Numbered from the stretch's first letter, positions 20,329-25,652 are shown. The stretch: DNA of 47,091 nt from a virus (IMGVR_UViG_2541047918_000004); one strand, 5' to 3'. Made by a program: numbers and translations. Notes: a model not told the origin generated them from the letters alone.

Positions 20329-21597
20329 TCAGCTTAACCTGCCTATGCGAACAGCCAGGCGTCCGTTCTGGTCATAAACTTCAATTTTATCATTGCGGAT
20401 CACCAGCCCCACATTCTGATTAGAGTAACGAATTGTCAGTTGCCCCTGCGACGTAACACTAAAAAGGCCACCAATATTCAGGTTACCCTGAGAATCAACC
20501 TGAAAGTTCCCGTTCTGAATAACAGCACTACGGATAACAGGCGACGTGATACTTGCCCCGGCTTTTACTTCATCTGCCACAACCTTCCGCGACACCAGTG
20601 TTTCAATCACCGCGTCATAAATCATCGCTTTGGGAATAACAACTTTTCCACCTGACACCGCAAAGGGATAGGCTGTGTTATCCGGGTTGTTCGGGTCAAA
20701 GACAAACAACTGCGATGCCGAAATTGCAACCTGGCTTACCGGCTTCCCTTCACCATCTTTTCCTGCAACAATTCCGATCCCCGCAGTAATTCCCTCAACG
20801 CCGGTCTTTTTTGACCACATGGCCAGGAAAGCTTCACCGCCTTCTTTATCCACCTTAGTGATGCGCTCATTTACCTTATTAAGCTCTTCACTGGTTGACT
20901 TATTCATCCCCGTAACACGGGTATCAATACCACCGATAGTTTTCAGTGTTTCTTCCCTGAGATTACCCACAACTTCCGTCGTCTCGATTGCCGCGTCCTT
21001 TACTGCCTGCCCCTGAGCATTCTTTATTTCCTTACGCAGCTCTTCCACCACCGGTGACTTTGCAGCCTCCTCCTTGATCTGGTCAATAATGGCCTGAACG
21101 CTTATCTGGGTTTGTGCGGGAGTGCCTTTTACCGCGTTCCATGGCCCTTTCACTCCCGCTGCATTAACAAAGCGTATCCAGTAGAATCCCGACCAGCCCG
21201 GATCAACCGGATCACCGTAAACCTGCCCCGGCGTCGTGGCAACCAGCACCGCATCCGAAAGGTCATCCTCCGTACCCCGCCAGATTTCAGTCAGTGAATG
21301 ACCGCGATAATTCGGCATATCCCATTCAAGAAGCACCGAACCAAATCCCCCGGTAGCCTTAAAATTCTGCGGCTTCGAGGGGAAATCAACGACCATCAGG
21401 CTACTGTCAATCTCGATCCCCGGATTCAGGGCGTATGAGACACCTCCTGAAGCCCGGCGACGGGCAAGCTTCAGACCAACCAGCTCTTCACGGGTTACAA
21501 AAGCATGACGACCATCTCCACGCTGCCCTGTGCCAATCTCCATATTTTCCACAACCGCAGATAAATCCTTTCCTGCGCGCCACGGTTTTTTTGTCAT
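20329..21597 (-). CDS. Tail fibre / host-specificity protein homologous to the C-terminal region of lambda J
   Basis: Segments such as EAFLAMWSKKTGVEGITAGIGIVAGKDGEGKPVSQVAISASQLFVFDPNN parallel the lambda J region ...[53 protein letters not shown] (from memory). Start overlaps the upstream gene stop (ATGA). Confidence 0.6.
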   Translation of the reverse strand: MTKKPWRAGKDLSAVVENMEIGTGQRGDGRHAFVTREELVGLKLARRRASGGVSYALNPGIEIDSSLMVVDFPSKPQNFKATGGFGSVLLEWDMPNYRGHSLTEIWRGTEDDLSDAVLVATTPGQVYGDPVDPGWSGFYWIRFVNAAGVKGPWNAVKGTPAQTQISVQAIIDQIKEEAAKSPVVEELRKEIKNAQGQAVKDAAIETTEVVGNLREETLKTIGGIDTRVTGMNKSTSEELNKVNERITKVDKEGGEAFLAMWSKKTGVEGITAGIGIVAGKDGEGKPVSQVAISASQLFVFDPNNPDNTAYPFAVSGGKVVIPKAMIYDAVIETLVSRKVVADEVKAGASITSPVIRSAVIQNGNFQVDSQGNLNIGGLFSVTSQGQLTIRYSNQNVGLVIRNDKIEVYDQNGRLAVRIGRLS

Positions 21598-23297
21598 ACC
21601 GGCAGCTCCGACATCGATGTACTGAGTGTGATACGTTCAACCTGACCAAAACCAGAAACCAGCATCTGCCAGTTTTGCCCGGTTGCAGCAGGTAACCTCA
21701 CAACGCGTCCTGAAAAGCTTCCTGGTGCAAGGTGAATCACCGGCACATCATCAGCCAGCACAGTAATTCCCACCCGCTCTGGCGTCGGAGACTTCACACT
21801 GAGACAGGAAAAAGAGGTTCTTTCCGGAAGGGAAAATACCTTTGAATGCCATCTGATTGTCGACGGCAAACTCCCTCCGGCAATCGCAGACATGTTTTGT
21901 CCTGATACCACCCGCATAACATCGTTAACCAGGTCAACACATGCGCAGTCAAACGGCGTACTGAGGTACCGGATATCCATGTTCGCCGGGCTGAAGACAA
22001 ACACATCCTGCTTACCATCCGGTTTCGTGTAACAGGCAATGTATTCACCACGCCAGGGATAAGCCACAATGGAGGCCGGATTAAACTGACTCTGCCACTG
22101 TTCCGGTGAAATAATCTGTTCCGTCGCCAGAGCGGCATTACCGTTTGCATCAACAGACACCAGGCCATTTGTTCCTGCATACAGCACAAAGCCCTCCATC
22201 GCGACCATACTCCGCCTGCTCAGACACGCCTGCATTGAAGGGATTCTGGAACCAGAAATTGTGGACGGTGAGACCCCACTGAACAAATAAGGCTCACCCT
22301 TTGTCGCCACCACCAGTGATGTTCCGAGCGGACAGATAGCCACAATATCTTCTGCCGTCGTGTGACGATTCACTTCCGGCCATGCATACGGCAGATACGC
22401 TTCCGAAAACATCACTTCATTACCGGCAAACCCGGCGGCAATACCGTTAGCCATCAGGCAAAGGCCTGTCATATTCTCTGGCGGCGGCAGGTAATCCCAT
22501 GTCGCCAGCGAAGGTCCAAGGTTTTTCGCCGGTATTTTGTCCGTGTAACTGAGCACGGATGCATCCAGTTCAGCCACAAGTAAAAAATCCGCCTCCCCTC
22601 CACCTGATGCAGAACGATAAATACGACGACGTTTAATACTGGCATTCTGCAATGGCACCGGAGCCAGCGTCAGTTGTACCGCAGTTCCCGGAGTACGGAG
22701 TGTTACCTCCAGAGACGCCGGACCTGGCGGACCTTCTTCACCATAATCTGAGACAAAGGTTTCCGTATAAAACCGGGTTTCATCATCATTCGGGTTATCG
22801 TCAGAAACATCACCGCCCTGCTGAACAGTACAGACAGGAGCTGTCGTCGGCGCGGGGATCCCCAGACGATACGATGATGTCGGGTGATTCCCGTCCCCTT
22901 TTGTGGCAATGGTCGCATCCGTCACTTTAGGAAAACGCCCGTCAGTGTAGTAAATACGCCCGTGGGGGTCCTGAGCGATCGGACTGCGGATCACATCCAC
23001 CACATCCGGCCATGCAAACCAGAAATCGTCACGGTAATGAAAAATTGTTTTTGGCTTAATTGTGAATGTTTTCTCAACCCCGGATATCTGACGTTCTGGT
23101 GTAATAACACCAAACCGGAAATGGCAGTCCTCCGCCAGTACAGCGGAATGCTCGGGCAGCATGGATGTCACAACGCGCGGCATCATCCCACGCATCGTGG
23201 TGATATCGATATAGGGCATAGAAATTCCTTTGACTGCTTCAGGCTTAAAAATCAGGGGATTTATGATGGAATTCGCTAAAATCGCGATCGGTATCAC
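21594..23297 (-). CDS. Putative tail-tip/tail-associated protein (567 aa)
   Basis: Long ORF translationally coupled to the J-like gene; assignment is by position only. Confidence 0.45.
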   Translation of the reverse strand: MIPIAILANSIINPLIFKPEAVKGISMPYIDITTMRGMMPRVVTSMLPEHSAVLAEDCHFRFGVITPERQISGVEKTFTIKPKTIFHYRDDFWFAWPDVVDVIRSPIAQDPHGRIYYTDGRFPKVTDATIATKGDGNHPTSSYRLGIPAPTTAPVCTVQQGGDVSDDNPNDDETRFYTETFVSDYGEEGPPGPASLEVTLRTPGTAVQLTLAPVPLQNASIKRRRIYRSASGGGEADFLLVAELDASVLSYTDKIPAKNLGPSLATWDYLPPPENMTGLCLMANGIAAGFAGNEVMFSEAYLPYAWPEVNRHTTAEDIVAICPLGTSLVVATKGEPYLFSGVSPSTISGSRIPSMQACLSRRSMVAMEGFVLYAGTNGLVSVDANGNAALATEQIISPEQWQSQFNPASIVAYPWRGEYIACYTKPDGKQDVFVFSPANMDIRYLSTPFDCACVDLVNDVMRVVSGQNMSAIAGGSLPSTIRWHSKVFSLPERTSFSCLSVKSPTPERVGITVLADDVPVIHLAPGSFSGRVVRLPAATGQNWQMLVSGFGQVERITLSTSMSELPV

Positions 23298-23371
23298 TGC
23301 AACAGAGTGTTGCTATGATATTCTGGACAAGACGTAACAACTCACTAATTGTTATCAAACGTCTTTCTTCT

Positions 23372-23400
23372 GGTCGGGGAGCATGTTGCTCCCCTTTTTT
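23372..23400 (+). terminator. Intrinsic-terminator-like hairpin plus T7 on the plus strand
   Basis: ggggagca-tgt-tgctcccc followed by TTTTTTT on the plus strand; no convincing plus-strand gene upstream, so the role is unclear. Confidence 0.3.
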
Positions 23401-23528
23401 TACTGCATTACCACCGCAGCTGTAGCAACAAGAGCCAGCACACCACCAAGCCACACAAACAGCATGAAGCACATTGCGCCTGTGGTGTAACGTTTTCTCC
23501 CGTATCTCCGGTCTCTGTCTTTGTTCAT
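23400..23528 (-). CDS. Small hydrophobic peptide (42 aa), paralogue of 4492..4617
   Basis: Within track ORF 23400..23582; start placed at the second of two adjacent Met codons with an AAGGTG-like ribosome-binding site 6 nt upstream. Sequence MNKDRDRRYGRKRYTTGAMCFMLFVWLGGVLALVATAAVVMQ. Confidence 0.4.
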   Translation of the reverse strand: MNKDRDRRYGRKRYTTGAMCFMLFVWLGGVLALVATAAVVMQ

Positions 23529-23581
23529 CATCTGCACCTTCTGAATCATCAGAAGATGCCGCGCATCCGGCAGGACCGCCA

Positions 23582-24052
23582 TCAGGCACCAACAAGCCGT
23601 CTGACGCTCACACCATACAGCCCGTTTTTCGCCATTCCCGTATACAGAAAGGTATTCACCGTCTTTGTGTTAATACCCATCTCACTGGCAAGGCGGCAGG
23701 GTCTCGACTGGCGGTAGACATAACCGAACATCACCACCATCTCTGACATCGTCAGCGGGCGGGCAGCACTGTTATACGTCCAGACGCCGTTGTGTATGGC
23801 ATCACTTATCTGCTCACCATCACGGAGCAACTCCGCATCCAGTTGCAGAAAATGACGCCCCTGGAACATACAGCGCATCAGCCTGCCCAGCAGGCCATCA
23901 CTGATTATCAGCCAGGATTCGTCAAAGTCCGGGATATAACGGCGGTTCTCCGGCAGGAAAAACTCCCTCGCCAGTATCACACTGTGCCCCTTCAGTAACG
24001 CCTGCAGACCATACTCCAGATAGCGGTTCCTGGTAGCCAGAATCACCTTCAT
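23582..24052 (-). CDS. LuxR/GerE-type HTH transcriptional regulator (about 156 aa), paralogue of 4671..5144
   Basis: Start inferred at MKVILATRNRYLEYGLQ; C-terminal LTMSEMVVMFGYVYRQSRPCRLASEMGINTKTVNTFLY is a LuxR-type HTH; roughly 75 percent identical to the copy at 4671..5144. Confidence 0.5.
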   Translation of the reverse strand: MKVILATRNRYLEYGLQALLKGHSVILAREFFLPENRRYIPDFDESWLIISDGLLGRLMRCMFQGRHFLQLDAELLRDGEQISDAIHNGVWTYNSAARPLTMSEMVVMFGYVYRQSRPCRLASEMGINTKTVNTFLYTGMAKNGLYGVSVRRLVGA

Positions 24053-24140
24053 CGCAGCACCTTCCTGTTTTTTATGCCCCATGAAAAACGGCAGACCAGA
24101 GTCCTGCGCCTGCCGCCATACTTCATGTCACTTTCAGCAA

Positions 24141-25652
24141 TTAAAACTCGAAGTTAACGCCCATGTTGTAGGACACATCGCCATCACTCGCTGCAATACC
24201 CGCTTTCGCTGCGGTCTGCTCGTTGAAACGGTAACCAACACCCACGGCAACAGCCTGTTTATCACTGTACCCCCCCAGGGCAGCAGTGGCGTTGAATTTC
24301 CCCACACTGTACGGCTGGAAAAGCCCCGCCAGCGCTGCACTCTGTGCTGCTGCACGCTTCATCTCTTCGTGATTCTCACGAATTTGACGCTGCTGACTGT
24401 TCAGGCGTGCATTATGCTCCTGCAACTGGCGAGTATTGGACTGAATAGCCTGTGTATTTTTAGTAACCCGGCGGTCAACGCTACCAACTGCATAATCAAT
24501 ACGGTCTGTTCTGCCAGACAGAGCAACGAGACCATCATTGACGGCGATAGTTTTAGTCGCACCTTCTGCACGGGTAAGTTTTCCGTCAGGGTTCACACCA
24601 ACTGTCGTTCTGGAGTCTGTATATTCACGAGACTTTTTCGCTTCGACTACAAGGCGGGTATTCGTATCCTGAGCCAGTTGCTCAACACTGTCTTTTACAC
24701 GGTCAACCTGACGAACGGTTGCAGCATCTGAGGGACGAGTACCGTCACTCAGACCACCAAGCACCCGGGTTTTATAAGCCTTACCCGGCTCTGCTTCATA
24801 ACCGATATAAACCTCATTGTCACGGGTTGTGCGTGAATTAGCTCCTAATGCAACACTGTTTTTATTTGTTACTGTTGCCTTTGCCCCTAACGCAGTACCT
24901 TCTGTTGCATTTTTATCCACTTTTGCTTTGGCTCCTAATGCAACACCTTCAGTTGCATTTTCATCCACTTTTGCGTAATTACCTATAGCGGTACCATAAA
25001 TAGCAGAACCATCAACATAAGCAGCTGTTCCGGCGGCTGTTGAAGCATCTGCATAGGCATATGCTCCCACTCCCAGAGCTGTACTTTGTTTACCGTCCGC
25101 AGCAGCCCATGAGCCCACTGCTGTTGCAAATTTTTTATCCGCTCTGGCCCCTGTACCAACAGCTACTGAGAACTCACCAGAGGCTTTCGCATCGCTACCC
25201 AGAGAAACCTTCCCATTCTCCCCATCTTCGACGCTGAAACCTGTAATTTTTGTTCTCTGCAGACTGTATACTTTGTTATATACATCACGAACAACGCTAT
25301 CAGTCATTCTGTGCGACTGAGACGGTCCATTCTTTTTTTTCTCAGCTGTTTGAGCAAAATCGTTCAGCGCACCGTCATGAATTGTGTACGTAATGCCACT
25401 GCCATTGATTATTACATCCCCATTTGAATCAAATGTGAAAAGTGTCCTCTTGCCGTTGTTCTTCTCTTTTACTTCGTATTTGAAGTTACCATTATCGCCT
25501 GTCTTTACAACTTCATAGGTATTCCCCCATTTATTGTTACCTGTGGCATACGGCACTGTGTATTTTTCTTCCTGCGCACTCACCCCACCACTCATCACCA
25601 GAAGCCCGGCCAGAGAAGATGACAGGAGTGTCATTGTAAACTTTTTACTCAT
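24141..25652 (-). CDS. Trimeric autotransporter adhesin, Eib-like (YadA-like head repeats, stalk and anchor)
   Basis: Signal peptide [27 protein letters not shown]; seven or more YadA-type head repeats ([58 protein letters not shown]); coiled-coil stalk; YadA-like C-terminal anchor. Size and prophage location resemble E. coli immunoglobulin-binding Eib proteins; the Eib assignment is from memory of the family. Confidence 0.8.

Follow-up and report, generated by a model that had tools for sequence, protein, structure and literature searches.

A small predicted membrane protein encoded at the end of prophage-borne adhesin cassettes in Escherichia coli

Introduction

Trimeric autotransporters of the Eib/Cla type drive chain-like adherence and serum resistance in LEE-negative Escherichia coli that make Shiga toxin (STEC) (PMC13534694), and their expression is conditional and poorly understood (PMC5450701). 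In a viral DNA stretch of 47,091 nucleotides (IMGVR_UViG_2541047918_000004; "the window" hereafter means this whole stretch), two trimeric autotransporter genes are each followed by a gene for a LuxR-like protein and then by a tiny ORF. What is this ORF, and what might its product do? An earlier note, made from the DNA alone, had taken the two ORFs to be real because they share a core despite divergence elsewhere. It had suggested a membrane-active toxin-like peptide, a regulatory membrane partner of the LuxR-type protein or a leader peptide.

Two short ORFs with a common core in one prophage region

The window is an E. coli prophage region, 100% identical to RefSeq NZ_AP045169.1 (STEC O75:H5 JNEC-KY173). 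The genes of its two cassettes are as follows.

5231..6229, minus strand: first gene of cassette 1, a short trimeric autotransporter with a YadA anchor (332 aa)
4671..5144, minus strand: LuxR-like 157-aa protein gene of cassette 1 (PGAP start)
4492..4617, minus strand: small ORF of cassette 1, a 41-aa paralogue of the cassette 2 product
24141..25652, minus strand: first gene of cassette 2, a YadA-like (Eib/Cla-type) trimeric autotransporter adhesin (503 aa)
23582..24052, minus strand: LuxR-like 156-aa protein gene of cassette 2 (phrog_6585; predicted pseudo-receiver plus helix-turn-helix)
23400..23528 including the stop codon, minus strand: small ORF of cassette 2, a 42-aa predicted single-pass membrane protein

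Both small ORFs are where the earlier note had placed them, on the minus strand, and have the common core that it had described. The product of the cassette 2 ORF (23528..23400) is MNKDRDRRYGRKRYTTGAMCFMLFVWLGGVLALVATAAVVMQ (42 aa) and that of the cassette 1 ORF (4617..4492) is MEQKKIRCGKRKYTAGAMCFMLFVWLGGVVTFCVLAALIMR (41 aa). The two peptides are identical at 21 of 40 positions (53%; BLASTP E 9e-17) and share an identical core of 14 residues, GAMCFMLFVWLGGV, while the core DNA differs at five positions, all of them synonymous third positions. An identical core protein with synonymous DNA differences indicates homology under protein-level selection, rather than chance or simple DNA conservation. 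In both cassettes the small ORF starts 53 nt after the regulator stop codon, and the 156-aa and 157-aa regulators are 69% identical.

The conserved start of the cassette 2 ORF is the ATG at 23528, with a second ATG at 23531. PGAP starts the same ORF at 23549, and the resulting 49-aa form is present in RefSeq as the hypothetical protein WP_224197863.1 (100% identity). The cassette 1 ORF has no RefSeq annotation; an in-frame stop lies five codons upstream of its ATG, so that a long N-terminal extension is impossible there. Several GenBank entries have longer forms (49–62 aa), the N-terminal extension of which is unconserved. We rejected a 49–60-aa long form as the product on account of the cassette 1 stop codon and because the two closest lineages differ in the extension by four substitutions, each of them nonsynonymous. 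As a point of annotation, many RefSeq genomes either lack a call for the gene or have its start wrong.

Three side observations concern the surroundings of the two cassettes. An S6-family (SPATE) serine protease autotransporter gene (1,353 aa; 274..4335, minus strand) lies directly downstream of cassette 1 in the same prophage region, so that, with the two cassette adhesins, the number of autotransporter-type virulence genes in this prophage comes to three. In the window, the autotransporter gene of cassette 1 is intact (332 aa, 5231..6229), and its counterpart in NZ_AP045169.1 (4502..5592 of the fetched locus L002) is split by an ISAba1-family (IS4-like) insertion. Just downstream of cassette 2, a 541-aa protein (21594..23219, minus strand) corresponds to positions 319–859 only of the 862 in phrog_511 ('internal virion protein'); cassette 2 may lie at a module boundary or in a truncated gene.

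The small ORF is under protein-level selection

We collected 25 distinct DNA versions of the small ORF. The substitution statistics were calculated on the nine versions retrieved via regulator homology, because pattern searches find intact cores only. In these nine, the core (codons 14–30) has a pS of 0.54 and a pN of 0.027 (pN/pS 0.05), and the flanking parts have pN/pS values of 0.54 (N-terminal) and 0.48 (C-terminal). Twelve variable sites sit in codons whose amino acid never changes. A core protein that is frozen while its synonymous sites are half saturated excludes conservation as a DNA or RNA element. In a six-frame test, low pN/pS was seen only in the ORF frame (+0; 0.05) and in antisense frame −1 (0.11), the latter of which shares its wobble positions with the ORF and contains stops in 17 of the 25 versions.

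The limits of the ORF are conserved as well. Its length is fixed at 41–42 codons with one read-through exception, and the stop position is fixed. In the peptide family, basic N-termini of seven or more very different kinds combine in many ways with about six hydrophobic C-termini, and the ATG is kept across these N-terminal sequences. In most groups the ATG is preceded by Shine-Dalgarno-like duplexes of −6 to −8 kcal/mol.

Protein collections point the same way. A protein search returned 33 clusters, all from E. coli and all with an invariant RYT[TA]GAMCFMLFVWLGGV. The peptide also falls into PHROG family phrog_9340 ('unknown function'), with a match that spans the full length (E 1.3e-29, 102.7 bits; residues 1–42 on profile positions 2–43 of 43). 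Conservation had been offered as an argument that the ORFs are real, and it is strongly borne out by pN/pS, the fixed start and length, the frame test and the database matches. We are highly confident that the small ORF is a genuine protein-coding gene. The independent lineages are few, and the core invariance could partly reflect recent spread and recombination within the core; the pS of 0.54 argues against this.

The family is catalogued (in PHROG and as hypothetical proteins) but uncharacterised; its predicted architecture places it among the small single-pass membrane proteins, a known class, and it is specific to Eib/Cla-type cassettes in E. coli prophages. One homologue is named 'putative ORF-60D' in an NCBI record, a name that we believe to derive from the original eib-locus GenBank entries of Sandt and Hill (Sandt and Hill 2000). 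We found no published work on the small ORF, and a literature search with the core motif was likewise empty.

The small ORF closes a mobile three-gene prophage cassette

We then compared the gene order of every fetched copy that had 1.3 kb or more of DNA upstream (77 copies; 54 distinct cassettes). In 77 of 77, the upstream order is a YadA-anchor gene, then the gene of a 156–181-aa LuxR-like protein, then the small ORF. The most divergent member (P0081, 39 aa) has the same three-gene order at a lambdoid prophage end beside the hya operon. The cassette adhesins conserve their signal peptide and C-terminal anchor. The mobile prophage cassette thus has three genes, for an adhesin, a LuxR-like regulator and, last, a small predicted membrane protein. 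Most cassettes have 53 nt between the regulator stop and the small-ORF ATG; the others have 43–49 nt, 5 nt or, in one lineage, a 1-nt overlap (overall −1 to 54 nt). This spacing leads us to infer co-transcription of the small ORF with the regulator and, for some lineages, translational coupling as well.

Downstream of the small ORF, the DNA is unrelated or convergent (dinI, a mini-ORF, tail genes or a SPATE gene), and 27 distinct 120-nt sequences were counted there. Further copies lie at prophage ends beside dinI and smpB or beside a yehU-like kinase gene; in the window, one copy has tail and virion genes around it. Since the small ORF is last in every cassette and nothing is conserved downstream of it, a leader or attenuator role can be rejected.

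Among 5,426 complete E. coli genomes, 62 carry the family, with up to seven copies per genome, and it was detected in E. coli only. With the peptide as tblastn query, neither 50,697 phage records nor 72,556 plasmids gave a match, and the back-translated core pattern is absent from 185,579 GTDB species representatives. When the GTDB representatives were searched with the regulator profile, a single Escherichia sp. contig was found, which lacks the small ORF. A profile search of 1.84 billion representative proteins yielded 11 matches, nine of which belong to the same E. coli family; P0084 and P0085 are spurious repeat proteins and were discarded.

The product is a predicted single-pass inner-membrane protein

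The product is a predicted inner-membrane protein of 41–43 aa with a basic cytoplasmic N-terminal tail and one transmembrane helix. The tail has about 16 residues and a net charge of +3 to +5. The hydrophobic segment has a mean Kyte-Doolittle hydropathy of 2.1–2.3 over 25 residues, and one residue extends beyond the helix. In the AlphaFold2 model of the peptide, a single helix covers residues 4–41, with a block-mean pLDDT of 92–93 over residues 21–40. Hydropathy, charge and the AlphaFold2 model all support the basic N-terminus and the single transmembrane helix that had been proposed at first reading. By the positive-inside rule, the protein would be oriented N-in, as a tail-anchored type without a periplasmic domain. 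A lipoprotein or signal-peptide remnant was rejected, for there is no lipobox and the end point is the same in all lineages.

Across lineages, the invariant or near-invariant segment is YT[TA]GAMCFMLFVWLGG, which is predicted to occupy the juxtamembrane region and the inner leaflet. The constraint is concentrated in the membrane-embedded half, and the cytoplasmic tail keeps its charge only. The constraint in and next to the predicted membrane segment is sequence-specific and goes beyond mere hydrophobicity, as in small membrane-protein modulators. No match for the peptide was found in a PDB sequence search, nor did Pfam, NCBIfam or PADLOC return any for the peptide or the regulator.

The neighbouring gene encodes a LuxR-like protein

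The neighbour had been called a LuxR-type regulator. The family corresponds to phrog_6585 (unknown function). The protein gave no match to Pfam or NCBIfam models, GerE/LuxR HTH included, at E values up to 1, and its hhalign comparison with K-12 DctR and GadE was not significant. In tblastn searches, it is related over its full length to proteins encoded on E. coli plasmids (31.8–43% identity, E about 1e-20 to 6e-31), which PGAP names mostly LuxR-family or LuxR C-terminal-related and in a few cases sigma factor-like HTH or hypothetical proteins. The AlphaFold2 model (pLDDT 82) shows a small α/β domain followed by a helical domain; it is globular and has no membrane segment. The best Foldseek matches of this model are full-length NarL/FixJ-type response regulators, at E values of 3e-3 to 5e-2 only. 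The acidic pocket of a receiver domain is missing, with T7-R8-N9 instead of DD. The LuxR-type label for this 156–181-aa protein is thus reasonable as a reading of sequence and model: homology to the LuxR-named plasmid proteins and, weakly, the fold speak for it, while a direct HMM match is lacking.

The claim that the small ORF follows each LuxR-type regulator holds in the window but not in general. A lambdoid prophage, the hpa locus and a plasmid with autotransporter adhesins each have paralogous regulators (55–69% identity) that lack the small ORF. By neighbour, the ORF-less homologues lie beside an nleA-like effector gene in lambdoid prophages, at the hpaBC locus, beside a large plasmid-borne adhesin with an OmpA-like gene, or next to pap/fimbrial genes (2501..3043 of L046; L011–L016; L017–L022; L151; L152). 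The LuxR-like proteins look like an adhesin-associated regulator family confined to Escherichia.

Transcription and translation signals

The following hairpins were found in and around the two cassettes.

5178..5207, minus strand: terminator-like hairpin (11-bp stem and T-run) between the cassette 1 adhesin gene and the regulator gene
24091..24107, minus strand: weaker terminator-like counterpart between the cassette 2 adhesin and regulator genes
23534..23559, minus strand: 11-bp hairpin whose 3' arm contains the Shine-Dalgarno (AGAAGGUG) of the cassette 2 small ORF
23376..23394 (terminator 23376..23401), T-run on the plus strand: GC-rich hairpin GGGGAGCA-nnn-TGCTCCCC, directly after the stop of the cassette 2 small ORF

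The terminator-like hairpins after the adhesin genes suggest that the regulator and the small ORF are expressed below the adhesin level, via read-through or from an unrecognised promoter. At the other end of the cassette, the hairpin at 23376..23394 is preceded by an A-run when read on the cassette strand. GGGGAG...CTCCCC hairpins with different loops are found 3' of the small ORF in most contexts. The hairpin after the small ORF is a canonical terminator for convergent transcripts (of dinI or of a 24-codon mini-ORF), situated at the ORF end.

The pairing probability is 0.83 in cassette 2 and 0.31 in cassette 1; the Shine-Dalgarno hairpin is specific to the cassette 2 group and absent from cassette 1. 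We rejected a family-wide sequestration of the Shine-Dalgarno, as it is confined to the cassette 2 lineage. In cassette 2, the regulator TGA (23582..23584) overlaps an ATG (TGATG) that opens a 60-aa in-frame form; this overlap is absent in cassette 1. The hairpin and the TGATG possibly constitute a lineage-specific translational coupling in cassette 2.

A modulator of a membrane-embedded partner is the favoured mechanism

What could the small protein do? We favour an RmpD- or MgrB-like modulator of a membrane-embedded partner, to which we give a probability of roughly 0.4. The reason is that the constraint lies in the membrane-embedded half, out of reach of a soluble regulator. The regulator paralogues at other loci without the peptide also count for this model. 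The strict co-occurrence with the regulator and the abutting or overlapping starts suit a partner of the regulator equally well.

According to this model, the small protein would act inside the inner membrane, with the invariant YT[TA]GAMCFMLFVWLGG segment docking onto a conserved partner that is itself embedded in the membrane, most probably an inner-membrane protein of the host and, with less likelihood, the peptide itself. The pattern of constraint would best be accounted for by a helix that packs sequence-specifically against such a partner, in the manner of MgrB, SafA, YoaI and AcrZ (PMC12648545). Whenever the adhesin cassette is expressed, the envelope or signalling state would thereby be adjusted. 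The linkage to the regulator would then serve co-expression, as in rmpA-rmpD, rather than direct binding.

The closest precedent in architecture comes from hypervirulent Klebsiella pneumoniae, in which the gene of the LuxR-like RmpA is followed by that of RmpD; this small membrane protein of 58 aa binds Wzc, a tyrosine kinase, and determines the chain length of the capsule (PMC12648545). The likeness is that of a small single-pass protein with a positive cytoplasmic stretch, encoded directly downstream of a LuxR-like regulator gene. Both systems are horizontally acquired, surface-remodelling loci, and in the Klebsiella system RmpD is an effector and not a partner of the regulator. RmpD differs in having an N-terminal helix and a C-terminal basic tail, a polarity opposite to that of our peptide, so that the two are likened by architecture alone; the host (Klebsiella) and the surface structure (capsule vs adhesin) differ as well. 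Other small membrane modulators are MgrB and SafA, acting on PhoQ, YoaI on EnvZ and AcrZ on AcrB (PMC12648545). Like the peptide, these have fewer than 70 aa and one helix, and they act by contacting a larger inner-membrane protein. However, MgrB and SafA use periplasmic tails, which the peptide would lack, and neither Pfam nor NCBIfam shows a similarity between the peptide and any of these four proteins. The safA gene, too, is in an operon with a regulator gene, ydeO.

Pseudomonas phage D3 offers a prophage-borne example: its Iap, a hydrophobic peptide of 31 aa, is an inhibitor of the O-antigen polymerase of the host. It is likewise a tiny prophage membrane peptide of a lysogenic-conversion cassette, and it alters the surface via a host inner-membrane enzyme. 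Iap belongs to another host and has no known sequence relation to the peptide, and an effect on LPS or capsule is known for the Iap side only.

Every prophage adhesin-gene copy examined has two unstudied companions, one of which encodes a strongly constrained small predicted membrane protein. Should the peptide act as a modulator of the regulator, or of a host protein of the envelope or of signalling, it would offer a direct handle on the timing and action of the adhesin. A modulator of this kind would also be a prophage-borne addition to the short list of functionally understood small membrane proteins.

Alternative explanations

An unlikely reading, but the one that follows closest, is a membrane tether or co-regulator: the basic tail would bind the pseudo-receiver regulator, hold or release it and so set adhesin expression, in a two-piece module without a kinase. 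The position directly downstream of the regulator in all 77 copies fits this idea, as do the gaps of −1 to 54 nt, together with the TGATG and the Shine-Dalgarno hairpin that suggest translational coupling in cassette 2. A regulator without a phosphorylatable acidic pocket would need another input. Expression of Eib depends on static, stationary-phase growth, with a regulation that has been called highly complex (PMC5450701). Against the tether, the only part that the regulator could reach is the variable tail, while the invariant residues would be buried in the membrane, and the 55–69% identical regulator paralogues manage without such an ORF. Covariation between tail and regulator is uninformative here because the two genes are physically linked. 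Of the proposed membrane partnership with the regulator, the tight linkage stands, but the position of the constraint does not fit. A more elaborate version, which we consider quite improbable, would make the peptide and the pseudo-receiver regulator a prophage signalling module of two pieces without a kinase, in which the invariant half of the helix senses or docks onto a host inner-membrane component and relays to the regulator. If true, this would explain how Eib/Cla adhesins are switched on in static, host-like conditions, and with it their long-unexplained conditional expression in LEE-negative STEC.

We also think it doubtful that the product is a membrane-active toxin, a holin-like peptide or an abortive-infection peptide, which would oligomerise and depolarise the inner membrane for prophage maintenance, phage defence or an arrest of cells that express the adhesin. 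In size and build (fewer than 60 aa, with one helix and a polar or basic end) it matches type I toxins, which are frequently prophage-associated (PMC12648545). The family itself is prophage-borne and reaches up to seven copies per genome. The small residues G17, A18, G28 and G29 in the invariant helix could pack into an oligomer, and the invariance of the helix could alternatively reflect homo-oligomerisation into a pore. The likeness to the type I toxins ShoB, TisB, Ibs, Ldr, Hok and AapA1 lies in the length, the single helix and the short charged end. In ShoB and AapA1 the basic end is also at the N-terminus. The peptide differs from these toxins by its 14 consecutive invariant residues, which are more than generic hydrophobicity. 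Moreover, a consensus scan, which can miss weak promoters, found no promoter-like site antisense near the small ORF, and Rfam gave no match at E values up to 1 on either strand of either cassette. Convergent transcription ends at the stop codon of the small ORF, so that it would not overlap the coding region. The ORF is the distal gene of an operon-like unit with the regulator rather than a stand-alone locus, PADLOC gave no match, and the Shine-Dalgarno hairpin is found in one lineage only. Hence the shape would suit a toxin-like peptide, as the earlier note had suggested, but the trappings of a type I system (antisense promoter, Rfam match, stand-alone locus) were not found.

It is very improbable that the peptide is a biogenesis helper for the trimeric autotransporter, as SadB is for SadA and TpgA for Ata. 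The small ORF is always in a cassette with an Eib/Cla-type adhesin whose signal peptide and anchor are conserved. This idea is largely refuted by the finding that EibA, EibD and EibG are surface-displayed and functional in E. coli TOP10 from the coding sequence alone (PMC12511318). In addition, the peptide has no predicted periplasmic portion, only one residue past the helix, and a plasmid cassette of adhesin and regulator exists without the small ORF.

There is next to no chance that the ORF is not a functional gene at all but a DNA or RNA element (a recombination junction, a leader or an attenuator) or a decaying signal-peptide remnant: the many combinations of N- and C-terminal variants do imply recombination within the conserved core, and many RefSeq genomes leave the ORF unannotated, but the core is conserved as protein (pN 0.027) and not as DNA (pS 0.54), start and stop are fixed, no conserved gene downstream could be attenuated, and neither a lipobox nor a mature domain after the hydrophobic segment is present.

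Degraded cassettes and the convergent mini-ORF

Degraded cassettes were also seen. In IMG/VR prophage contigs (L058–L072), a deletion fuses the C-terminal coding region of the regulator to the last 14 codons of the small ORF, ...GVMLLVATAAMIMQ*. Two entries labelled E. coli O157:H7 EDL933 (H119 and H120) give the same truncated regulator match (residues 21–156). On the opposite strand, the convergent 24-codon mini-ORF MMEFAKIAIGITATECCYDILDKT (23263..23337, plus strand) is preceded by a Shine-Dalgarno-like AGGGGA and has no PHROG match. In 49 of the fetched copies, the mini-ORF module recurs 3' of the small ORF with a few amino-acid substitutions, and eight variants of its sequence were seen.
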